A stretch of DNA of 64,000 bases. It comes from Escherichia phage AV123. Made by a program: the position numbers and the translations under genes. Position 1 is the first letter of the stretch; every line of letters begins with the position of its first letter. The notes beneath the pieces are model-generated. The model was not told the DNA's origin and made no database searches. It worked only from the letters and a program-made list of their open reading frames with translations. Shown in pieces: positions 4,101-64,000 of this stretch. The stretch is from the sequence record OR352953.1, one strand, 5' to 3'.

Positions 4101-4616
4101 CTAGTAAAACCCTTTAACAATCTGTATTAACTCGGCACAACGGTTGACCAACTTTTCCTCATACAATACACGTTGTGGCATATGTTGTATAATATACTCC
4201 ATTTGCTCATGCCATGTCCACTTTTCTTTTTTGTCTGGGATAACATCACTAGCACGAGAATTATCTTTTAATGTTTGTATAATCCAATTGCTTGGAAAGT
4301 GCTCTCCACCTTTCTTAAATGGTTTATAGTGGCCTAGAGTAAATTGAGAATCCCCTGTTAGAGCACCCAATTTATTTAGATGGATAATCAAACTACGAAA
4401 CACATAGTATTCATAGATGTTATCCACCGTATAGCAAGCATAATATTTCAAGATGCCCTTATCTCGCGGATACTTACCAACATCCAGATTGCACCAGTTG
4501 ACATTTTCTGGATCATAGTGGTGTTCCTTAAGCCATATTTCTCTTTCATCAAAGTCTGGATATATTACCGCTCTGCTTACAGAGTCAACAAGTGGAGATT
4601 GAGCATCAAAAAACAT
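4101..4616 (-). CDS. hypothetical protein
   Basis: 171 aa ORF. Confidence 0.55.
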   Translation of the reverse strand: MFFDAQSPLVDSVSRAVIYPDFDEREIWLKEHHYDPENVNWCNLDVGKYPRDKGILKYYACYTVDNIYEYYVFRSLIIHLNKLGALTGDSQFTLGHYKPFKKGGEHFPSNWIIQTLKDNSRASDVIPDKKEKWTWHEQMEYIIQHMPQRVLYEEKLVNRCAELIQIVKGFY

Positions 4617-4637
4617 TATATTTTCCTTATTGGTTTG

Positions 4638-5003
4638 TTAAACGTTTTCTAAATCTTTTAAGGCATTACCCAACGTTAGAACAATAACATCATTTGCTGC
4701 CTCTTCCCCATTGATATTGGTGAAATTTGGTGTTACAAAAGTAACCATATAAAACTCGTCCACCTGGAAGATAGCAATAACACCATCCATCTTAACATCT
4801 TGACGAAAGGAAAAACCAATCATCTTCTCTTGCAAAGGCATATCCCCTTCCTTCATTACTGCCAGGGAGTCTTCAGGAATGTTATATTTATCTGCTCCGA
4901 TGTAGATGTATGTAATGTTATCTTTATCGTGATGATACAGGGTTGCTTTTTCCATATCTAAACCTGACAGATCAAATACGTTAATTTCTTGTGTAGTCTT
5001 CAT
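4638..5003 (-). CDS. hypothetical protein
   Basis: start reset to ATG 5001-5003 (GGGAGGA RBS); track N-extension overlaps upstream gene. Confidence 0.55.
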   Translation of the reverse strand: MKTTQEINVFDLSGLDMEKATLYHHDKDNITYIYIGADKYNIPEDSLAVMKEGDMPLQEKMIGFSFRQDVKMDGVIAIFQVDEFYMVTFVTPNFTNINGEEAANDVIVLTLGNALKDLENV

Positions 5004-5367
5004 AAATATCCTCCCAAATCCAATAATCATCTGTGTAAGTAGGATGCCTTTTATCCCACTCTGTTCTAGCCCAAGCAACCGCTGCTACCAACACATCACC
5101 ATGACAAGGTTGAGGTGCGCAGAAGCAAACTAAGTCTTTCCCTTCTAATTCTAACAAATCCTCAAGAGTGATTTTACCACAACGAATTTGTTCCCACAAC
5201 CACTCTTTATATCTTTGTATAGTTGACCCTCGTGGTTCATCATCCTTTAACTTAAAAGGATTTGCAAACTTTGAGGCTTTTAACCCCATATGAGGCATAG
5301 CTCTGCCAATGTAAACTGCACCTTCAGGTATTACTTTACCTAAGTGGTAAAAATTTAATACTTTCAT
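4981..5367 (-). CDS. DUF4326-family protein
   Basis: YIGR...NPF...C.C.P.PCHGDVL motifs; start reset to ATG 5365-5367. Confidence 0.5.
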   Translation of the reverse strand: MKVLNFYHLGKVIPEGAVYIGRAMPHMGLKASKFANPFKLKDDEPRGSTIQRYKEWLWEQIRCGKITLEDLLELEGKDLVCFCAPQPCHGDVLVAAVAWARTEWDKRHPTYTDDYWIWEDIYEDYTRN

Positions 5368-5368
5368 A

Positions 5369-5719
5369 TTAACCCAAACACATCTGTGCAATCAAGCCCT
5401 GTATAAATTTATTAGCTTCTTTACTGTCGTAGTCAGTCTCTTCTGGATATCCATCTTCATCGTACACAACTGTACCTTCAATATACCCTGCCTCAATTAA
5501 GGCGCGGATCATATCAAATTGCCAGCATGAGTTACCAAATGGACGTTTACCATTAAAACACTCTTCTTCTCTCCATAACGTAGAGAGTAGTTGTCGGAAA
5601 TATTCCCGTACAGTGACAGTACCAAGATCTGAATCCTCAAACATAACATCCAAGGCATCAGGATTGCTTTTCTCTACATAAGGAATATATTTAACACCAT
5701 TAATAGTTACATCAAGCAT
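5369..5719 (-). CDS. hypothetical protein
   Basis: 116 aa ORF. Confidence 0.5.
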   Translation of the reverse strand: MLDVTINGVKYIPYVEKSNPDALDVMFEDSDLGTVTVREYFRQLLSTLWREEECFNGKRPFGNSCWQFDMIRALIEAGYIEGTVVYDEDGYPEETDYDSKEANKFIQGLIAQMCLG

Positions 5720-7069: not shown

Positions 7070-7336
7070 CTAATTACTGTTAGATCTGTATTCTGTCTTC
7101 CATTCACAATGGTAAACTTCAACAGGTTCTAACTTCCAGTGTTCAGGAACTAGTTCAGGACAATATCTACAAAAGAGAAATAGATAGATAACTAAGACAG
7201 GTATTAAATAGTAAAATGGTATACGATCATAACCATACTTACGAGATAACATGTAGACATATAGATATGGTATAACAATTAAACCTATAACTATAAGTAA
7301 GAAGAGAAGTATAAACCTTAGTGTAGTAACATCCAT
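7070..7336 (-). CDS. small membrane protein
   Basis: 88 aa, two hydrophobic segments. Confidence 0.5.
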   Translation of the reverse strand: MDVTTLRFILLFLLIVIGLIVIPYLYVYMLSRKYGYDRIPFYYLIPVLVIYLFLFCRYCPELVPEHWKLEPVEVYHCEWKTEYRSNSN

Positions 7337-7414
7337 AGTATTCTCCTATACAGTAATATACTCTGTTCCTGCCCCTCCATGAGTGACAGGAACAATATCT
7401 ATAGAGAATACTAA

Positions 7415-7468
7415 CTCGCTTCGCTCGTCACCTTTCAGGTTTAGGGTAGCATGTTTTTCTGAAAAAGT
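7415..7468 (+). other. conserved intergenic element, copy 1 (CTCGCT-CGCTCG...TTAGGGTAGCATGTTTTT..GAAAAAGT)
   Basis: second copy at 34586-34638 with an 18-nt identical core; hairpin immediately upstream in both copies. Confidence 0.5.
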
Positions 7469-7500
7469 CAATACTCTCCACAAAACTTTACAAAATACTT

Positions 7501-7773
7501 TTACATAGGTACAACAGAATCTGTTTTGAAGTCGTACATATGATTTACACCTGTGATTTTTGACATAGAGATTGCACGTTTAGCACCTGCAATTACCTGG
7601 TCTGTCTTCTTAATCTCTTCACGGAACTTACGTACAGTTAAAGAGAAGAAACGATGATCCATCCATTGACGATTCACACGATCACGCTTGAAGTGACGGA
7701 AATCTTCAATCTGCTTATTGCGCAATCGGCGCAGTACATGCAATAGTTGATAGTAAGGGTGTTTATTTTTCAT
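7501..7773 (-). CDS. hypothetical basic protein
   Basis: 90 aa ORF. Confidence 0.5.
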   Translation of the reverse strand: MKNKHPYYQLLHVLRRLRNKQIEDFRHFKRDRVNRQWMDHRFFSLTVRKFREEIKKTDQVIAGAKRAISMSKITGVNHMYDFKTDSVVPM

Positions 7774-12345: not shown

Positions 12346-12361
12346 GTAAGCCAGCAAATAA

Positions 12362-12390
12362 AAACCCGCTCCGGCGGGTTTTCTTGTATT
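12362..12390 (+). terminator. rho-independent terminator
   Basis: CCCGCTCCGGCGGG hairpin followed by TTTTCTTG. Confidence 0.6.
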
Positions 12391-13961: not shown

Positions 13962-14175
13962 TATTTTGAAAATTTTTATTTTTATAAAAAGGGGTGTGGG
14001 TTTCATGTACGGAAATTCACCCTCTGAATAATATATTCAGAGTAAATATTATTTTGTACTCTGTTAATAAATTATTTAATTTGTTTGTTGGATTATGATA
14101 TCTGGTTTTTAAAAGGCATACTATCTCTTAACTACTATTTATAACAGAACAGTAAAATCATTTTTATAAAAAGGA

Positions 14176-14382
14176 CAAAATTATTTAAAGTTTTTACAGA
14201 TTTTTGGATACAAATTTTGAAAATGAAAAGTTCAAGTTTGGTCAAAATTATTTAAAGTTTTTGTATGTATTTCTATCCAGATTTTGAAAATGAAAACTTC
14301 AATTTTTTAAAAATTCCCCAGTTTATTTAAAGTTTTTTTGCCTTTTTCCGTAGAAAAATCAAAAATGAAAAGTTCAATTTCG
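14176..14382. repeat. three tandem ~65 bp AT-rich direct repeats
   Basis: units at 14176, 14243, 14320 sharing ATTTAAAGTTTTT...ATTTTGAAAATGAAAAGTTCAA. Confidence 0.7.
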
Positions 14383-14400
14383 TGTTTTTATAGGTGTGTT

Positions 14401-14513
14401 AATGAGAATCATTTTCGTTTGTAAATGAGAATCATTATCATTTAACTATGTAAGTGATAATCATTCTCACTAAGAGAATGAGAATCATTAGCAAATGAGA
14501 ATTTTTCTCATTT
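14401..14513. promoter_or_regulatory. cluster of five Fur-box-like palindromes (ATGAGAAT-C-ATTCTCAT family)
   Basis: copies at 14401, 14424, 14454, 14474, 14493; one symmetric substitution from E. coli Fur core TGATAATCATTATCA. Confidence 0.5.
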
Positions 14514-15547: not shown

Positions 15548-15607
15548 TTGACAACGTTTTTTAATCTGATAAGATGTAACAAATAAGGCGGGAAGTGGTT
15601 TCCCACC
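15548..15607 (+). promoter_or_regulatory. promoter plus leader stem-loop cassette 1
   Basis: TTGACA-16-TAAGAT then GGCGGGAAGTGGTTTCCCACC hairpin, RBS, ATG 15633. Confidence 0.6.
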
Positions 15608-15632
15608 AGGCAATCAAAGAAAGGGTAACACA

Positions 15633-18246: not shown

Positions 18247-18306
18247 TTGACACTGTTTAAAATTCTGGTATAGTTTATCACATAGGGCGGGAAATGGTTT
18301 CCCGCC
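18247..18306 (+). promoter_or_regulatory. promoter plus leader stem-loop cassette 4
   Basis: TTGACA-16-TATAGT then GGCGGGAAATGGTTTCCCGCC. Confidence 0.6.
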
Positions 18307-18328
18307 AAATCAAAGAAAGGTTATCATT

Positions 18329-18556
18329 ATGGCTATCGTTATTGTTCGCGTATCCGGTACGGTTGGAAGCTCCCAGGTAGTAGCAGTTATCACAGAGAAG
18401 AAAGGGGATGATCTTCACTCCTCCTTGAATAGCTGGGCGGTCGCTAACTTTGGGCAATGGTCGAGCGTTGAGTACATCGAATCCTACCAGGTGCCAACGA
18501 TTAGCCTAACCGATCTAAATGTTGATCGCTTGTTGTGCCTGGATCAATTAAACTAA
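18329..18556 (+). CDS. hypothetical early protein
   Basis: 75 aa. Confidence 0.55.
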   Translation: MAIVIVRVSGTVGSSQVVAVITEKKGDDLHSSLNSWAVANFGQWSSVEYIESYQVPTISLTDLNVDRLLCLDQLN

Positions 18557-18564
18557 AAATAATA

Positions 18565-18620
18565 TTGACAAGATAACTAAAATCAGTAAAATGTAATGCA
18601 TAGGGCGGCAATAGTGCCGC
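18565..18620 (+). promoter_or_regulatory. promoter plus leader stem-loop cassette 5
   Basis: TTGACA-16-TAAAAT then GCGGCAATAGTGCCGC. Confidence 0.55.
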
Positions 18621-18643
18621 TCCTAGTGAGAGAGATTATCAAG

Positions 18644-19127: not shown

Positions 19128-19186
19128 TTGACAGTAGCATCATTTATAAGTAAAGTAACAACAACGGCGGGAAATGGTTTCCCGCC
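19128..19186 (+). promoter_or_regulatory. promoter plus leader stem-loop cassette 7
   Basis: TTGACA-17-TAAAGT then GGCGGGAAATGGTTTCCCGCC. Confidence 0.6.
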
Positions 19187-19206
19187 ATCAATAAAGAGAT
19201 AAGATC

Positions 19207-19581: not shown

Positions 19582-19719
19582 ATGAACGCATCACAGCAGA
19601 TCGAAAAATTCAACCGCAGCAAGGCGCGTAAAGATTGGAACGAAGAGATCACCAAAAAAGGCGACAAGCGGAACAAAACAAAGAGAGATCGCAGCACAAA
19701 AAGATACTGGAACGAATAA
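19582..19719 (+). CDS. small lysine/arginine-rich protein (45 aa)
   Basis: hand-translated; AAGAGGAAG RBS. Confidence 0.45.
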   Translation: MNASQQIEKFNRSKARKDWNEEITKKGDKRNKTKRDRSTKRYWNE

Positions 19720-19723
19720 CAAA

Positions 19724-19747
19724 AAAGGGCGCAATAAGCGCCCTTTT
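19724..19747 (+). terminator. rho-independent terminator
   Basis: GGGCGCAATAAGCGCCC then TTTTAGC. Confidence 0.55.
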
Positions 19748-21434: not shown

Positions 21435-21496
21435 TTGACAGCACACCTAACAGATAGTATATTGTATCTCATAGAGCGGGGAAATGGTTTCCCCGC
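21435..21496 (+). promoter_or_regulatory. promoter plus leader stem-loop cassette 8
   Basis: TTGACA-17-TATATT then GCGGGGAAATGGTTTCCCCGC. Confidence 0.6.
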
Positions 21497-21802: not shown

Positions 21803-21862
21803 TTGACACTAGGCAAACAACGTAGTAAAGTTTATCACATAGGGCGGGAAATGGTTTCCCGC
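21803..21862 (+). promoter_or_regulatory. promoter plus leader stem-loop cassette 9
   Basis: TTGACA-17-TAAAGT then GGGCGGGAAATGGTTTCCCGC. Confidence 0.6.
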
Positions 21863-21885
21863 TCACAACAGAAGAGAAACAAATC

Positions 21886-22056
21886 ATGATCCCAACTATG
21901 TTTTATGTATCGCGCAAAGGTCACAATATTTTTTGGTCTGAAGATTTAAATGAAGCCATGACGTTTGCCCGTGATCGTGTTGCTATCGGTGGCGTTAACA
22001 TTACTGTAACCGATGAAAACGGCATTGAATACTATAACGGCGACGATGAAGAGTAA
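21886..22056 (+). CDS. small hypothetical protein (56 aa)
   Basis: hand-translated; follows cassette 9. Confidence 0.45.
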   Translation: MIPTMFYVSRKGHNIFWSEDLNEAMTFARDRVAIGGVNITVTDENGIEYYNGDDEE

Positions 22057-22063
22057 TTAATAA

Positions 22064-22084
22064 GGCGGGGGAGTATTCCCCGCC
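22064..22084 (+). promoter_or_regulatory. leader stem-loop 10 (no obvious promoter)
   Basis: GGCGGGGGAGTATTCCCCGCC just upstream of RBS of 22104 gene. Confidence 0.5.
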
Positions 22085-22103
22085 GTCAATAAAGAGGTAA
22101 ATC

Positions 22104-22373
22104 ATGAAAATATCTTTGGACGTTGCAATCAAGGCCATTGAATCCGGTTACACCCTGGTAAAAGATGATAAGGCTAAAACCGTGCACCACGTTAACAAGG
22201 AAACAGGCGAAAGCATGATCACATATAAAACCGCCTATTTTCTCCAATCAGTAGCAGATCCGCGCGTACAACGCCAGGTTACGGCGGCTATTGCTAAAAA
22301 ATTATGTGCTTTACAGGGTACAAGTTTTAACGAGATCGCCCCGTGTTTTGACTGGTCGAGCTTGAAAAAATAG
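22104..22373 (+). CDS. hypothetical early protein
   Basis: 89 aa. Confidence 0.55.
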   Translation: MKISLDVAIKAIESGYTLVKDDKAKTVHHVNKETGESMITYKTAYFLQSVADPRVQRQVTAAIAKKLCALQGTSFNEIAPCFDWSSLKK

Positions 22374-22374
22374 T

Positions 22375-22430
22375 TTGACAACAATTATAAATCGGGTAGA
22401 ATGTATTTCGTAGGGCGGCAATAGTGCCGC
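22375..22430 (+). promoter_or_regulatory. promoter plus leader stem-loop cassette 11
   Basis: TTGACA-17-TAGAAT then GGCGGCAATAGTGCCGC. Confidence 0.6.
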
Positions 22431-22453
22431 TCACAACTAAAAGAGAAATCAGC

Positions 22454-22649: not shown

Positions 22650-22711
22650 TTGACAATACGCGGTTATCTGGTAAAGTGTACGACATAGGGCGGGGCAATA
22701 AGGCAACGCCC
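22650..22711 (+). promoter_or_regulatory. promoter plus leader stem-loop cassette 12
   Basis: TTGACA-16-TAAAGT then GGGCG...CGCCC hairpin. Confidence 0.55.
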
Positions 22712-23449: not shown

Positions 23450-23508
23450 TTGACACCGATCCCCAATATGTTATTATTTACCACGTAGGCGGGAAATGGT
23501 TTCCCGCC
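23450..23508 (+). promoter_or_regulatory. promoter plus leader stem-loop cassette 13
   Basis: TTGACA-16-TATTAT then GGCGGGAAATGGTTTCCCGCC. Confidence 0.6.
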
Positions 23509-23531
23509 AGGTAATCAAAAAGGTAAATACT

Positions 23532-23921: not shown

Positions 23922-23933
23922 TACACGGTAAAA

Positions 23934-23961
23934 GAAAGGGGCGCACTAAGCGCCCTTTTTT
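23934..23961 (+). terminator. rho-independent terminator
   Basis: GGGCGCACTAAGCGCCC then TTTTTTG. Confidence 0.65.
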
Positions 23962-24305: not shown

Positions 24306-24365
24306 TTGACACCGGATCGCCCTTATACTAAGATGTATCACGTAAGGCGGGAAGTGGTTTCCCGC
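24306..24365 (+). promoter_or_regulatory. promoter plus leader stem-loop cassette 14
   Basis: TTGACA-17-TAAGAT then GGCGGGAAGTGGTTTCCCGC. Confidence 0.6.
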
Positions 24366-24384
24366 TCAATATAGGAATCATATC

Positions 24385-25074: not shown

Positions 25075-25087
25075 ATAACATTTCAAA

Positions 25088-25116
25088 CAAGGGCGCTTAT
25101 TGCGCCCTTTCTTTTT
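25088..25116 (+). terminator. rho-independent terminator
   Basis: GGGCGCTTATTGCGCCC then TTTCTTTTT. Confidence 0.65.
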
Positions 25117-25321
25117 ACCTAAATAAAGATGATAGCTTTTACCTATCAAAAACGTTCACCGAAAAAAGTGAATAGATCGCGGTATCGAGCTAATCAAGGA
25201 GCAGATGAACAACCATACCATGAAGATCATAAGGCGCTTACAACGTGTTTTAGACCGCTTATTTTTAATTTCTTCATGTAATTACCTGGCAAAAACAGCC
25301 TTTTTCTTGTCTTTCCTCTTA

Positions 25322-25392
25322 AATGATAATCATTCTTATTTATAGCTGATTATTTATGCAATAAATTGCATAATGCAATAATGAGAATCATT
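25322..25392. promoter_or_regulatory. two Fur-box-like palindromes
   Basis: AATGATAATCATTCTTAT at 25322 and AATGAGAATCATT at 25380. Confidence 0.45.
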
Positions 25393-25948: not shown

Positions 25949-26241
25949 TAATGTTTAGAACATTGGCTATAATATAAGCTATCCAATAATAAACATGGTG
26001 AATAATGACACTGATGATCATAATGCGCCACCCTCCAGGGGGCGCTATGTGAACACAAAGAAATCTTTCTTGTCAAGAAAAATATCACCATTATTGCGCA
26101 AAATTATTTATATCTGAATAGATGATTTTTCATACTATTGCCCCCTTGATTATTACCATTTGTTGAGCCTACTTTCTTAAAAGCGCAATAAAATAGAATT
26201 ATATTGATTTTTAGTCGGTTTTATAGTACAGAAAGTATGCA

Positions 26242-26456
26242 AATGATAATCATTATCAGCTATCTTCCACGGGTGGCACTATTTCACACCAGATCATTTC
26301 ATTTGGCAAGGTGTATATAGATGTTTAGACTTGCCAAGCCATTGATTTCCTTAGAATTTATCTGTTTTGTTGTGAGTAGTACCTTTCTTGCTTAGAAAAT
26401 AATCAAAAGTCTTATAAGTCATTGAATGATAATACAAATGATAATTATTCTCATTG
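26242..26456. promoter_or_regulatory. Fur-box-like sites
   Basis: AATGATAATCATTATC at 26242 (15/15 to Fur core) and GAATGATAAT..ATGATAATTATTCTCATTG at 26424. Confidence 0.5.
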
Positions 26457-26814
26457 ATATTTGAGGGGGACGGTCGGCAGAAATCGGGGGGTGCTGAAAA
26501 TCGCGTTAAGCACCTCTCGCAAGCGAGCAGTATTTTGCGGCAAGTTATTGATATTATTGACTTTACGCTTATGAAAAGGGGGTGTGTCGAAATAAATCGG
26601 GTATACCGGAAAATTTTTGTGGCATAGATATTTATTTGTCTATATTATGTACAAAGGGGTGTGTTAAAAATAATAGGTATATATAGAATAATTGATAGGG
26701 AATATCTATACTAATTCCTCCATTAATGATATTCCTATGCTACTGCTCTTGTAATAGATGAAAAGACGCTGTATGATGTGTGGCATGAAACGTAAACTTA
26801 TAAAGGAGTCTGAT

Positions 26815-34033: not shown

Positions 34034-34258
34034 ATGAAGTCTGTAAACAAGTTGCAACAATTTTTGTTATCAACAGCAATCTTTTTGCTTTTGTTAATTG
34101 GTATTCTGTATGGTGCATCTAACTTATACAATCTACATAGTGATGTAGAACAGAATAAAGAGAAGTGCATCATTCTAAAACACAAGAAACAAGCAGAAGA
34201 TTTCTTAAAGAATAAGTGTTACAACTACATTGATTATGAGGAGACAAACAATGATTAA
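34034..34258 (+). CDS. paralog family B small membrane-anchored protein (copy 2)
   Basis: TM helix then KEKCIILKHKKQAEDFL. Confidence 0.5.
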   Translation: MKSVNKLQQFLLSTAIFLLLLIGILYGASNLYNLHSDVEQNKEKCIILKHKKQAEDFLKNKCYNYIDYEETNND

Positions 34259-34493
34259 AGAATTAGGTATGCGAGTATACAGTGAGTGGACTCCAAGCAA
34301 TGGCCCAGGAGTTGTTGCAGCTAAATGTATCAATGGTCGTATTGAGTACCTGGAAGGGTATGAAGATAATGAAGAGTTAGTAGATTATGCTAAATCTTTT
34401 ATTGAAGATGATACAGACTTTATTGTATTATATGATACAGGAGAGTTAGAGTATGGATATGATGGAGATGGGGATATCTTTGAACTTCAATAA
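34251..34493 (+). CDS. acidic hypothetical protein
   Basis: start reset to ATG 34251 (GAGGAG RBS). Confidence 0.5.
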   Translation: MIKELGMRVYSEWTPSNGPGVVAAKCINGRIEYLEGYEDNEELVDYAKSFIEDDTDFIVLYDTGELEYGYDGDGDIFELQ

Positions 34494-34585
34494 GAGTAGT
34501 AAGTAAGGTATAAAGAGTATATAGTTAGTTATAGAGTTAGTAACATTACATATACTCTTTCCATGTATAACATGGAATATTCTCT

Positions 34586-34638
34586 ACCTCGCTATCGCTC
34601 GGTATATAAGATTAGGGTAGCATGTTTTTTACGAAAAG
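34586..34638 (+). other. conserved intergenic element, copy 2
   Basis: matches 7415-7468 including identical TTAGGGTAGCATGTTTTT. Confidence 0.5.
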
Positions 34639-34700
34639 TAAAACTGTTTATACCGATTGATAGCAGGTTTTTAATAGATTCTATCTATGAGGAGTAGAAA

Positions 34701-34919
34701 GTGTACAAATTATATAAAGGAAAAGATAAGTTTACGGGTAATACATCTGGTTTCTATGTAACACCACGTGGCGTTGCCGTATTTGATTGGATTCCTGGTA
34801 CTCCAGATCGTGAAATGATCTCTCTTGTAAAACTGTCGGAACAAGAGTACACTTACGGTGACATTACAACATTCTATTCTCGTGCAGAAAATCCAAAACT
34901 GATTGCGGAGTGGGAATAA
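34701..34919 (+). CDS. hypothetical protein (GTG start)
   Basis: 72 aa; GAGGAG RBS 7 nt upstream of GTG. Confidence 0.45.
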   Translation: MYKLYKGKDKFTGNTSGFYVTPRGVAVFDWIPGTPDREMISLVKLSEQEYTYGDITTFYSRAENPKLIAEWE

Positions 34920-38179: not shown

Positions 38180-38185
38180 CACATA

Positions 38186-38208
38186 AACCCGCTTCGGCGG
38201 GTTTTCTT
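38186..38208 (+). terminator. rho-independent terminator
   Basis: CCCGCTTCGGCGGG then TTTTCTT. Confidence 0.65.
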
Positions 38209-38917: not shown

Positions 38918-38945
38918 CTATAAGAAAAGGGGCTTTCGCCCCTTG
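38918..38945 (-). terminator. rho-independent terminator (minus strand)
   Basis: GGGGCGAAAGCCCC then T-run on minus strand. Confidence 0.5.
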
Positions 38946-38951
38946 GTCAAG

Positions 38952-39764
38952 TTACTTAGTCAAATGATCTTCTATCATTTTTATGAAAGCAGGATTGCTA
39001 AAAGCATCTGCTGCCTTTTCTCTATAAACAAAGACTCCTCTATCTTCGTAAAGAAGAGTTTCTTCGTAATTAATTCCTGGGTTAACAACAATCATTTTTG
39101 TACCCATAGTAAGTGCAGGGAATAATTCCCAATTAAAATTGATAACTTGGTTTGAACATCCTACTACAACAACCAAATCTTGCATGGTCAAAGTATCAAA
39201 CAAGTGAGCCATATCTGCATACAAAGGTGCAGCCTCACCAAAAAATACAACATTAGGCTTCACCCAGTTATAATCATCTATGTTTATACTATTGTAACCA
39301 ATGTCTACCAGTGTTTTGTAATCTCCAGGATGCATACGGTAAACTACTTCAGGGAGATACCCGTGCACGTGAATAACAGAATCCCTGTCCACACCTGCTC
39401 GCTCTAGTAGATCATCGACGTTTGTTGTCAAGTTTACTACTTGGTTAGGATATTCCTTAAACCACTTTGCTATTTGAATATGTGCAGCATTAGGTTGTAC
39501 ATCTTTAAGCTCAACACGTCTTTTGTTATAAAATTCGTGTGTTTTGGCATATAAGTCCATACCGTTCTCGTCTACACCACCGACCACTGGAAGATCTGGA
39601 GATGTTCTCACACGATAACCTGCTTGGAAAGCTCCAATATCGCAGACCTCTTCTAAGTCATATTCTTCCCATAAGGCACGACCACTATCTGTGTCTGTTC
39701 GGAACGTTCGAATCCCACTGTCTGCACTTAAACCTGCGCCACTAACAAAAATTACTCTTCGCAT
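38952..39764 (-). CDS. Sir2-family NAD-dependent deacylase/ADP-ribosyltransferase-like protein
   Basis: GAGLSADSGIRTFR, TTNVDDL, HVHG, VVVVGCS sirtuin motifs; 270 aa. Confidence 0.7.
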   Translation of the reverse strand: MRRVIFVSGAGLSADSGIRTFRTDTDSGRALWEEYDLEEVCDIGAFQAGYRVRTSPDLPVVGGVDENGMDLYAKTHEFYNKRRVELKDVQPNAAHIQIAKWFKEYPNQVVNLTTNVDDLLERAGVDRDSVIHVHGYLPEVVYRMHPGDYKTLVDIGYNSINIDDYNWVKPNVVFFGEAAPLYADMAHLFDTLTMQDLVVVVGCSNQVINFNWELFPALTMGTKMIVVNPGINYEETLLYEDRGVFVYREKAADAFSNPAFIKMIEDHLTK

Positions 39765-42551: not shown

Positions 42552-42578
42552 AACAAAAAACCCGCCGAAGCGGGTTTA
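42552..42578 (-). terminator. rho-independent terminator (minus strand)
   Basis: AACCCGCTTCGGCGGGTT then TTTTTT on minus strand. Confidence 0.65.
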
Positions 42579-42580
42579 TA

Positions 42581-42838
42581 TTATTCTACAGGAACTTCTT
42601 CACCAAAAGAAACTTCTAAACGGAATGCTTTACTTTCAATACACTCACTACCTTTTAGAAAATCAAATTGCACTATAGACTGACTTAATAGGATAGATAG
42701 AATCACATCGCAATCTTCACTAGGAGCTAGATGTTTGTATTCTTCCTTCAAGGTAACATCATAAAAACATAAATCCCCTACTCCTAGTTCATCCCATCCT
42801 TCCCACGCATCTACAAAGTTAAACTCTAAACCTTTCAT
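42581..42838 (-). CDS. hypothetical protein
   Basis: 85 aa; GAGGAGG RBS. Confidence 0.55.
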   Translation of the reverse strand: MKGLEFNFVDAWEGWDELGVGDLCFYDVTLKEEYKHLAPSEDCDVILSILLSQSIVQFDFLKGSECIESKAFRLEVSFGEEVPVE

Positions 42839-50207: not shown

Positions 50208-50231
50208 ATAAAAGGGGCTTTCGCCCCTTTG
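50208..50231 (-). terminator. rho-independent terminator (minus strand)
   Basis: AAAGGGGCGAAAGCCCCTTTT. Confidence 0.6.
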
Positions 50232-50232
50232 T

Positions 50233-50733
50233 TTAGTTATAAGCGTCTAATGTTCCAGTTTTAAGCACCTGAATTACACGCTCTGCGCGATTAGGCGTTT
50301 GGCGATACCATTTACTTTTACGTAAATTTATAGAGGCTTGAGTATAATATGAATTACTCACTAAAGTCAAGCTATTTTTGAAAGATTCTGCACCTTTCAA
50401 TCCCATTTGAAATACCATATTAATAATAGCCATTTTACGATTAGGACTTACTTTATCGTAAATAGGAGATAATATGGTGCTTGAATGGATTTGTTGTATC
50501 GCTTTCTTTACGTCACTCTCAAAGATTCTTCTAGCTTCCGCTTCAGTAATAACTCCATTGGTTTTTCTACCTACTAAGTTATCAAGAATGCGTATAGCTT
50601 CTGCTTTATCTTTGAGTTTTGTCAGAAGGTGTCCAATACCAACTGTCCAATACCCTTCGGTATCAGGATATACAGTTAGCTTTAGTCCTTCATCAAAACG
50701 TAACATATCAAACACATCAACTACTTTAGCCAT
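50233..50733 (-). CDS. T4-type lysozyme (GH24 endolysin)
   Basis: FDMLRFDEGLKLTVYPDTEGYWTVGIGHLL matches T4 lysozyme catalytic region. Confidence 0.85.
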   Translation of the reverse strand: MAKVVDVFDMLRFDEGLKLTVYPDTEGYWTVGIGHLLTKLKDKAEAIRILDNLVGRKTNGVITEAEARRIFESDVKKAIQQIHSSTILSPIYDKVSPNRKMAIINMVFQMGLKGAESFKNSLTLVSNSYYTQASINLRKSKWYRQTPNRAERVIQVLKTGTLDAYN

Positions 50734-63294: not shown

Positions 63295-63322
63295 AAATAA
63301 AGGGGCTTTCGCCCCTTTTTTA
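63295..63322. terminator. bidirectional terminator-like hairpin
   Basis: AAAGGGGCTTTCGCCCCTTTTTT. Confidence 0.55.
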
Positions 63323-64000
63323 TTAAATTCCAATAACAGTGTTTACACGCTTCTCTTTGCTACGCAAATTAACACGTCCACGAGACAGGCTATTACATGA
63401 TGTGCATCTTAGCACTTGGAATGTACTAACCGCTGTTGTGTAAACCTTACCAGGAACAACTTCAAGGTGCTCTTTACCGCAACGAGGACAACGAAGTTTT
63501 TCATCGTCATAGAATGCAGATACGTTAGGATGTTGTGGAATCCATGCACGAAGTTTGATGTAAAGATCTCTAAGAGAAACAACATCACCATCATTGTATG
63601 TTTGCATACGGAAGAAGGCATGTCTATCTCCTTCACAACATGCTTTCCACAAAGGAAAACCTTCATTGTCAAGTTTAAAGTTTTCTGTATCAAAATACAA
63701 ACACATTTCTTTAAGCGCATTAGAAGGTAGTGCAAACTGCTTCTTAGCTGCCTTGAGTGTATCAATTACAACATAATGTGATGGTGGCTCCATACCGTGA
63801 AAAGCAAAACGTTGGTTAATATAAGCCTTATCAAACTTAATACCGTTGTGCGCGATCACAATATCTGCATCGTCAAGCAAGTGCCAGAGATCTTGACATA
63901 ATTCCCAATCATCTGTATGATCTATGTCAAACAAAGGGTAATTGCTAAGGTTCTTACCTTCTACTTCCCCTGTTTCTAAATCAGCAGATGAATAGGAAAG
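63323..64000 (-). CDS. DnaQ-like (DEDD) 3'-5' exonuclease with C-terminal zinc ribbon, partial (N-terminus beyond window end)
   Basis: frame open to window edge; ADLETG (Exo I) near edge, HNGIKFDKAYI (Exo II), C-terminal CPRCG...CTSCN. Confidence 0.6.
   Translation of the reverse strand, partial: LSYSSADLETGEVEGKNLSNYPLFDIDHTDDWELCQDLWHLLDDADIVIAHNGIKFDKAYINQRFAFHGMEPPSHYVVIDTLKAAKKQFALPSNALKEMCLYFDTENFKLDNEGFPLWKACCEGDRHAFFRMQTYNDGDVVSLRDLYIKLRAWIPQHPNVSAFYDDEKLRCPRCGKEHLEVVPGKVYTTAVSTFQVLRCTSCNSLSRGRVNLRSKEKRVNTVIGI

Follow-up and report, generated by a model that had tools for sequence, protein, structure and literature searches.

A predicted sigma-70 extended -10 promoter coupled to a 5′-terminal hairpin recurs on the minus strand of a phi92-like Escherichia phage

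Read on the minus strand, the repeated element described here is probably a sigma-70 extended -10 promoter coupled to a hairpin at the 5′ end of the transcript, as judged from sequence comparison. The window, i.e., the whole 64,000-nucleotide stretch of Escherichia phage AV123 (OR352953.1) that was analysed, contains two of the three cassettes found per complete genome (copy 1 and copy 2, Table 1). All three genomic copies present the same minus-strand order: TTGACT, TTTACT or TTGACA, a spacer ending in TGC, TACCCT, AA, a short variable stretch, and CGAGCG-N1-2-AGCGAG. Host RNA polymerase with sigma-70 would recognise TTGACT, the 17-18 bp spacer ending in TGn, and TACCCT, and transcription would start approximately 7 nt past the -10, the distance that is usual in sigma-70 promoter geometry. 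The 5′ end of the RNA would then fold into a small hairpin with an invariant tip, beginning within the first ~10 nt. A promoter had already been among the candidates of the sequence-only reading; the promoter stands, but on the minus rather than the plus strand, and of the sigma-70 extended -10 rather than the late or middle type.

The 18-mer TTAGGGTAGCATGTTTTT is present exactly at 7441-7458 and 34612-34629, on the plus strand in both cases. With up to three mismatches allowed, these were the only two matches within the window, where 0.10 would be expected by chance, and none of 100 shuffles gave two. The accompanying box, CTCGCT(N1-2)CGCTCG, reads CTCGCTTCGCTCG at 7415-7427 and CTCGCTATCGCTCG at 34588-34601, and local alignment of the two copy regions gave a score of 45, compared with a shuffle maximum of 24. 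The pair of copies sharing a box and an identical 18-mer, first noticed from the letters alone, is therefore exact in place and above chance. A GAAAAGT said to follow the 18-mer is found in copy 2 but not in copy 1, which reads GAAAAAGT. The local hairpin said to precede each copy is present on the plus-strand side, as GTTCCTG..CAGGAAC at 7365-7393 for copy 1 and as TTCCATGT-ATA-ACATGGAA at 34559-34577 for copy 2. For the suggestion of a recombination hotspot, no evidence was found.

Table 1. Features of the two cassettes in the window and of the flanking genes. Coordinates are those of the window.
Feature	Position	Strand	Basis
Copy 1, whole cassette	7412-7471	-	sequence
Copy 1 -35, TTGACT	7466..7471	-	sequence
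Copy 1 17-bp spacer, T-run then A-run, TGC at 7449-7451	7449..7465	-	sequence
Copy 1 -10, TACCCT (7443-7448), and AA (7441-7442)	7441..7448	-	reverse complement of TTAGGGTA
Copy 1 predicted start, +/-2 nt	7436	-	inferred from sigma-70 geometry
Copy 1 hairpin, UGA-CGAGC[GAA]GCGAG-UUA	7412..7430	-	fold, covariation; complement of CTCGCTTCGCTCG
Copy 1 leader hairpin 2, GUUCCUG..CAGGAAC and inner stem	7365..7393	-	RNAalifold, single-sequence fold z = -4.2
Copy 1 Shine-Dalgarno, GGAG	7344-7347	-	sequence
Copy 1 putatively driven gene, 88-aa phi92 gp208 homologue	7070-7336	-	ORF list, homology
ORFs flanking copy 1	7501..7773 and 7070..7336	-	ORF list
Copy 2, whole cassette	34585-34642	-	sequence
Copy 2 -35, TTTACT	34637..34642	-	sequence; Phapecoctavirus orthologues TTGACT
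Copy 2 17-bp spacer ending TGC (34620-34622), -10 TACCCT (34614-34619), AA (34612-34613)	34612..34636	-	sequence
Copy 2 predicted start	near 34607	-	inferred
Copy 2 hairpin, UAC-CGAGC[GAUA]GCGAG-GUA	34585..34604	-	z = -3.95, covariation
Copy 2 candidate ~100-nt non-coding transcript, 3′ end approximate	34500..34607	-	fold, no ORF, conserved layout
Copy 2 hairpins 2 and 3	34559-34577 and 34513-34559	-	fold
ORFs flanking copy 2	34230..34493 and 34701..34919	+	ORF list

By megablast, 55 phage genomes match both regions at 95-99% identity, all of them phi92-like (Justusliebigvirus, Stephanstirmvirinae) and including muut, cardinal, and phi92 itself. This similarity places the window among the phi92-like Escherichia phages (Justusliebigvirus). 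On the phi92 map, copy 1 falls in the gap from gp209 to gp208, two minus-strand genes, and copy 2 in that from gp023 to gp024, two plus-strand genes. The strands of the flanking ORFs in the window are those given in the sequence-only reading. Ribosome-binding sites are the sole annotation of the phi92 record at both loci.

A whole-genome search for more copies, carried out on the muut genome (NC_052657), identified a third copy outside the window (L003, 14945-15000) in the opposite orientation. There, the prs/nadV genes and the neighbouring operon diverge from a region of 410 bp that houses the copy; behind the copy come a stretch very rich in AT and another sigma-70-like promoter. The copy also coincides with the global minimum of the cumulative GC skew, a measure confounded by gene orientation. 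Exactly three cassettes each were found in muut and in Phapecoctavirus 536P1, and Stephanstirmvirinae genomes would keep three such cassettes. The copy-3-type heads prs/nadV, with a tRNA cluster next in muut and, in the Klebsiella-phage lineage, a small acidic ORF before the prs homologue. Copy-1-type and copy-3-type cassettes always point at co-oriented genes. In the region of the third copy (L003 14930-15045, minus strand) there is an Rfam match to GA-cis RNA (RF02987) of 21.3 bits against a gathering threshold of 34.7 (E = 0.05), which is probably due to chance; the window copies were unmatched.

In a phage collection searched with blastn, 134 phage records carry the cassette, essentially all of them Stephanstirmvirinae-like. 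Judged by these alignments, the element outlasts its flanking genes, which megablast no longer detects. When the Klebsiella-lineage locus was the query, three of the six matching phage records aligned over the 144-nt element only, at ~93% identity. The phiWec-like locus retrieved 65 of 71 records at 80-90% identity, and both of the records from those 65 that are among the matches listed align only over ~200 nt around copy 2. Further copies and conservation in related phages, whose absence would have spoken against the element in the sequence-only reading, were thus both found.

The promoter part was compared across 18 distinct copies from several phage lineages, the additional copies being drawn from IMG/VR, INPHARED, one complete Phapecoctavirus genome, and metagenomes. 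The -35 is TTGACT, TTGACA, TTGGCA, or TTTACT in 16 of the 18; the spacer is 17 or 18 bp long and divergent in sequence; the TG before the -10 is kept in 17 copies, with C, G, or A as the next base, as expected for TGn; and TACCCT-AA is invariant. Fixed hexamer spacing, free spacer sequence, a kept TG, and an invariant TACCCT-AA together form the conservation signature of a sigma-70 extended -10 promoter, and at the level of sequence the promoter part has every feature expected of that class. Twenty more distinct metagenomic copies fit the same pattern, with TTGACT in all 20 demanded by the search pattern itself. Whereas the -35 and -10 keep a fixed distance, the box lies 4-14 nt from TACCCT in copies with the promoter and 24 nt from it in L020. 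L020 lacks both the -35 and the TG, and the remote contigs L020 and L025 possess TACCCTAA and the box but no recognisable -35.

The TACCCT hexamer fits TAnnnT (T-12, A-11, T-7) and agrees with TATAAT at only three of six positions, which is why consensus promoter and terminator scans around both copies did not call the element. A scan with the -35 and TGnTACCCTAA alone was discarded as too unspecific. The invariant CCC and the following AA go beyond plain sigma-70 needs and hint at an extra constraint. Literature searches found no transcriptome of these phages. The related rV5 genome is reported to have sigma-70-like promoters throughout, 11 of them with an extended -10 (PMC3606486).

Downstream of the -10, the tip of the modelled hairpin is invariant, CGAGC-[G(N1-3)A]-GCGAG, with a C-G pair, tandem sheared G.A/A.G, and G-C and C-G pairs. 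The loops start with G and end with A (GAA, GCA, GAUA, GUAA, GAAA, GUCUA) and are of the GNA/GNRA type. Beyond the tip, the stem is lengthened by 3-6 variable base pairs. In 15 copies, 80% of the cells at the 3-5 positions flanking the invariant 13-mer are paired, compared with 26-45% when the partner columns were slid, and none of 500 shuffles reached the observed flank pairing or covariation. The closing flank pair is seen as AU, CG, GC, and UA. In copy 3, L011, and L021, the stem continues beyond the tip for a single base pair, the second position being mismatched. The minus-strand RNA folds at -5.3 (copy 1) and -7.9 kcal/mol (copy 2), the plus strand at 0 and -4.9. G.U pairs and purine-purine mismatches are possible on the minus strand only, and the G.U pairs and tandem G.A favour that strand.

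The hairpin starts at approximately +4 to +8 of the predicted RNA and extends to about +30, and it would act at the RNA 5′ end. No U-tract follows the stem, which would be needed for an intrinsic terminator. Its most likely role is that of a 5′-terminal stem-loop shielding the transcript from 5′-end-dependent decay, and it could also be a recognition site for a factor. Neither sigma-70 recognition nor stem stability accounts for the invariance of CCC-T-AA and of the 13-nt tip. A search of the whole window with Rfam 15 gave no match at the gathering threshold, and permissive Rfam searches with the three copies and one island leader (see below) returned only sub-threshold GA-cis and chance miRNA/snoRNA matches. 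The cassette was not described in any paper retrieved from the literature with phage names or the literal hairpin sequence. The pairing of this promoter with a specific leader hairpin is undescribed; the promoter itself is a known kind of element.

For copy 1, RNAalifold analysis of 10 copy-1-type leaders from different phages gave the 5′ hairpin and a two-tier hairpin 2. The inner stem of the latter exhibits compensatory changes (AU, UA, CG), and its U.G pairs, present in 9 of the 10 leaders, again favour the minus strand. Copy-1-type leaders are 91-107 nt long and all end at a Shine-Dalgarno sequence and a gene beginning ATGGAT(GT/AC), and the cassette sits within a co-oriented operon. On this sequence evidence, copy 1 would serve the gp208-like gene, and the rest of the operon after it, as an internal promoter with a structured 5′ UTR. 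It had been argued that the element was unlikely to be a simple promoter for the adjacent genes. For copy 1 that argument fails, because the minus-strand reading would drive the adjacent minus-strand gene; for copy 2, which is discordant with its neighbours, it holds. The leader lengths differ by non-multiples of three, which makes annotated small ORFs across the element spurious, and the window ORFs 7346..7483(-), 7383..7508(+), and 34563..34697(+) were dismissed as candidates. Deposited 'hypothetical protein' CDSs over the cassette are found in Klebsiella phage FKP3 (L019, 1503-1601) and in several Justusliebigvirus records.

Both genes beside copy 2 lie antisense to it in Justusliebigvirus as well as in the phiWec-like phages (L015) and Phapecoctavirus (L017, 536P1). 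In every case, the copy-2-type immediately precedes the gp024 homologue and faces the other way. In 536P1, a separate promoter, TTGACA-N18-TACATT, belongs to gp024 and stands back to back with copy 2. Copy 2 itself is directed at the hairpins closing the upstream operon and would fire towards these terminator hairpins. The predicted RNA has three hairpins (-27.3 kcal/mol, z = -3.07), with a U-rich stretch, UUUAUACCUU, after hairpin 3 and just before the stop codon of the upstream gene. No clean U-tract or scanner-grade terminator was found after these hairpins on the minus strand, and hairpin 2 (34559-34577) is terminator-like only when read on the plus strand, for the upstream operon. No minus-strand ORF with room for it was found downstream of copy 2. 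Given its antisense direction towards the terminators of the upstream operon, copy 2 most likely produces a short structured non-coding or antisense RNA, perhaps of ~100 nt, or acts by convergent transcription. The 3′ UTR of the upstream operon is the one part that this candidate RNA certainly overlaps. Of the possibilities raised by the sequence-only reading, a small RNA survives for copy 2 only.

The complete cassette, comprising -35, TGn, TACCCTAA, the hairpin, and a hairpin-2-like TTTCATGTTAGTCATGAAAGAGAG, was also detected downstream of integrase genes in three places: the viral contig L023 (identical to L287; 4691-5650), a Scandinavium chromosome (L165, about 4400-5411), and an uncultured bacterium (L177, 7113-7417). 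There it heads an operon encoding a DUF5906 primase-like protein and endonuclease VII. The cassette is followed by ~800 nt without convincing ORFs, containing repeated CTGTTCCTGT(TAC) motifs, and then by the primase-like operon. These islands may be phage satellites with a long non-coding leader. In the available DNA, no specific protein common to the phages and the islands was found, only generic methyltransferases, and this points to a portable, host-read cassette or a purely structural role more than to a factor specific to the phages. The island leader gave no match in 5,426 complete E. coli genomes.

In bacterial genomes, TACCCTAA together with the box gave at least 120 matches, compared with ~500 expected by chance according to our own estimate, and most of these matches look like chance. 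A multi-copy family in Planctomycetaceae was rejected because it represents the left end of an insertion sequence, with the box as a terminator tip. At least eight near-identical left ends of this kind are present in a Planctomycetaceae MAG (L156, L163, L166, L180, L196, L202, L210) and in L155; each starts with TGTTGTCAACCAATAGAAATGTCCC and has a duplicated subterminal repeat, TACCCTAA, and a long terminator tipped with GGCGAGCGCAGCGAGCC. A recurrent bacterial hairpin, (T)GTCAT(T/C)CCGAGCG-N-AGCGAGG(A/G)ATCT, has the same GA/GNA tip and occurs at 11 loci (L176, L198, L199, L222, L230, L248, L249, L255, L260, L262, L266) in MAGs labelled Bacteroidia, Bacteroidales, Acidoferrales, Chthoniobacterales, and several others. 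Rfam matched no family at the hairpins in nine recurrent-hairpin loci, a set that leaves L266 and L168 outside, and gave nothing at the hairpins in 18 bacterial loci.

The window contains other repeats. A second, larger family of promoter cassettes has copies at 15565-15623, 18264-18322, 18555-18622, 19148-19202, 21453-21494, 21821-21879, 22052-22100, 22365-22432, 22667-22694, 23470-23524, and 24328-24382. Several of them consist of TTGACA-N17-TAnAAT or TGnTAnAGT followed directly by a GC-rich hairpin (GGGCGGGAAATGGTTTCCCGCC or GGGCGGCAATAGTGCCGCTC). This family (15.5-24.4 kb) probably represents early promoters with their own 5′-terminal stem-loop; that their hairpin after the -10 is a different, GC-rich one fits a general 5′-terminal stem-loop strategy. 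The non-coding region 14160-14455 contains three ~70-75-nt tandem-like, iteron-like repeats (ATTTTTATAAAAAGGACAAAATTATTTAAAGTTTTT...) and is a candidate origin or regulatory region; in muut, repeat_regions are annotated in the corresponding non-coding region. Palindromes of the AATGAGAATCATT type are repeated near 25319-25342 and 26005-26468. Three families of GC-rich hairpins, near-identical within each family and bordered by runs of A and T, resemble bidirectional intrinsic terminators employed repeatedly: AAAACCCGCCGAAGCGGGTTT, AAAGGGCGCAATAAGCGCCCTTTT, and AAAAGGGGCTTTCGCCCCTT, with sites at 12357-12382, 38183-38205, and 42557-42582; at 19717-19747, 23929-23959, and 25081-25119; and at 38925-38954, 50210-50239, and 63298-63327.

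Several other explanations of the element were weighed. The hairpin may have a small chance of being the site for a trans-acting factor, either in nut/put-like antitermination or as a translational or stability regulator, in which case the three transcripts would form a regulon and copy 2 would read antisense through early genes once the polymerase was modified. Very divergent copies all share the same 13-nt tip in changing surroundings, the G..A loops resemble boxB loops, each genome has three promoter-proximal sites, and the invariant TACCCTAA suggests more than sigma-70 contacts. Set against this, there is no conserved boxA-like sequence past the hairpin (a CGCUCUUA-like boxA beside it is not conserved, and the post-hairpin sequences differ between copy types), no candidate binding protein was identified, and the islands share only generic methyltransferases with the phages. 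Copy 2 considered by itself is unlikely to be a functionless relic, i.e., a duplicated copy-1-type promoter and leader whose gene was lost. It does share the promoter, hairpin 1, AGAGTATAT, and hairpin 2 (shortened in copy 2) with copy 1, and has no ORF behind it, but Justusliebigvirus, phiWec-like phages, and Phapecoctavirus all retain its position beside the gp024 homologue, its antisense direction, and intact promoter hexamers, and ~200 nt around it are conserved at ~83% where the neighbouring genes are undetectable.

A signal on the plus strand is extremely unlikely, be it a variant of a late or middle promoter (T4-late-like, TATATAAGA) or a signal of another kind. Two of the three genomic copies (copies 2 and 3) have a plus-strand gene downstream, and TAGGGT and TAGCAT are TAnnnT hexamers on that strand, but neither a -35 nor a TG occurs at a fixed distance, and the variable spacing between the box and TTAGGG rules out a plus-strand promoter built from both blocks. 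Plus-strand hairpins are weaker, and the U.G pairs would turn into A.C. The T4-late-like TATATAAGA pointed out by the sequence-only reading is indeed present in copy 2, but neither copy 1 nor copy 3 contains it, nor is it kept in the copy 2 orthologues of other genera, that of Phapecoctavirus lacking it as well: copy 1 has CACCTTTCAGG at this place and the Phapecoctavirus copy 2 has AAACATATGT. Being unique to one copy, it cannot carry the T4-late idea. A DNA-level element, such as a replication origin, a primer promoter, or a hairpin extruded from single-stranded DNA, is also very unlikely. The tip contains GNA mini-hairpins of the d(GCGAAGC) type, a type also known from phiX174/G4 origins and N4 promoters; copy 3 lies in an AT-rich divergent region at the global cumulative GC skew minimum; and the orientation of copy 2 is independent of its neighbouring genes. 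However, the skew merely tracks gene orientation and was dropped as origin evidence, copy-1-type leaders exhibit RNA-type covariation up to the ribosome-binding site, and an origin would more plausibly lie in the repeat-rich non-coding region at 14.1-14.5 kb.

The minus-strand promoter with its 5′ hairpin remains our preferred reading. It would fix the exact positions of three promoters and leaders in phi92/phAPEC8-type phages, which are widely used in collections for phage therapy; annotation pipelines overlook these features or overlay them with spurious 'hypothetical protein' ORFs. It also predicts one unannotated antisense or non-coding transcript beside the putative regulator genes gp024-gp027. 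A compact, portable promoter and 5′-hairpin cassette common to unrelated mobile elements could serve as an expression part, and if a factor reads the hairpin, a new regulatory circuit would be exposed. More speculatively, and with little likelihood in our estimate, the GA-hairpin and TACCCTAA may constitute an RNA 'address tag' for a host or phage factor, marking three transcripts per Stephanstirmvirinae genome, with the same tag heading the main operon of Enterobacteriaceae satellite-like islands and copy 2 being an orphan regulatory non-coding RNA gene. If so, the islands could plug into the phages' own control circuit.

Among known systems, the likeness to T4 late promoters (TATAAATA) is limited to the A/T-rich octamer TATATAAG in copy 2, which is unconserved and falls in the stretch transcribed first from the minus-strand promoter; homologues of gp33/45/55 are reportedly missing from rV5-type phages (PMC3606486). 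Copy 2 resembles lambda OOP in that a promoter of constitutive appearance, without an ORF of its own, is aimed at the 3′ end of an operon and would give a short structured RNA, but its hairpins end ~7-20 nt before the upstream stop codon, and it has no clean terminator and no known target. With lambda nut boxB and HK022 put, the cassette shares a small hairpin with a GNRA-like loop near a few key promoters. This boxB-like hairpin is a resemblance only: here there is no boxA and no identified N-like protein, the phage is a virulent myovirus and not lambdoid, and the hairpin lies at ~+4 to +30, whereas nut and put lie tens to hundreds of nucleotides downstream. E. coli extended -10 promoters, e.g., galP1 (TGCTATGGT), have the same TTGACA-like -35, free spacer of 17-18 bp, TG at -15/-14, and T-12, A-11, and T-7. 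The cassette differs from them in that the -10 is always TACCCT-AA and is always coupled to one leader hairpin. Stabilising stem-loops of the ompA 5′ UTR type are similar in that the hairpin is positioned a few nucleotides from the predicted 5′ end. In contrast to those stabilisers, which need only a stem, the cassette has a tip of 13 invariant nucleotides with tandem G.A and a G..A loop, and this invariance beyond the needs of a stem suggests specific recognition.
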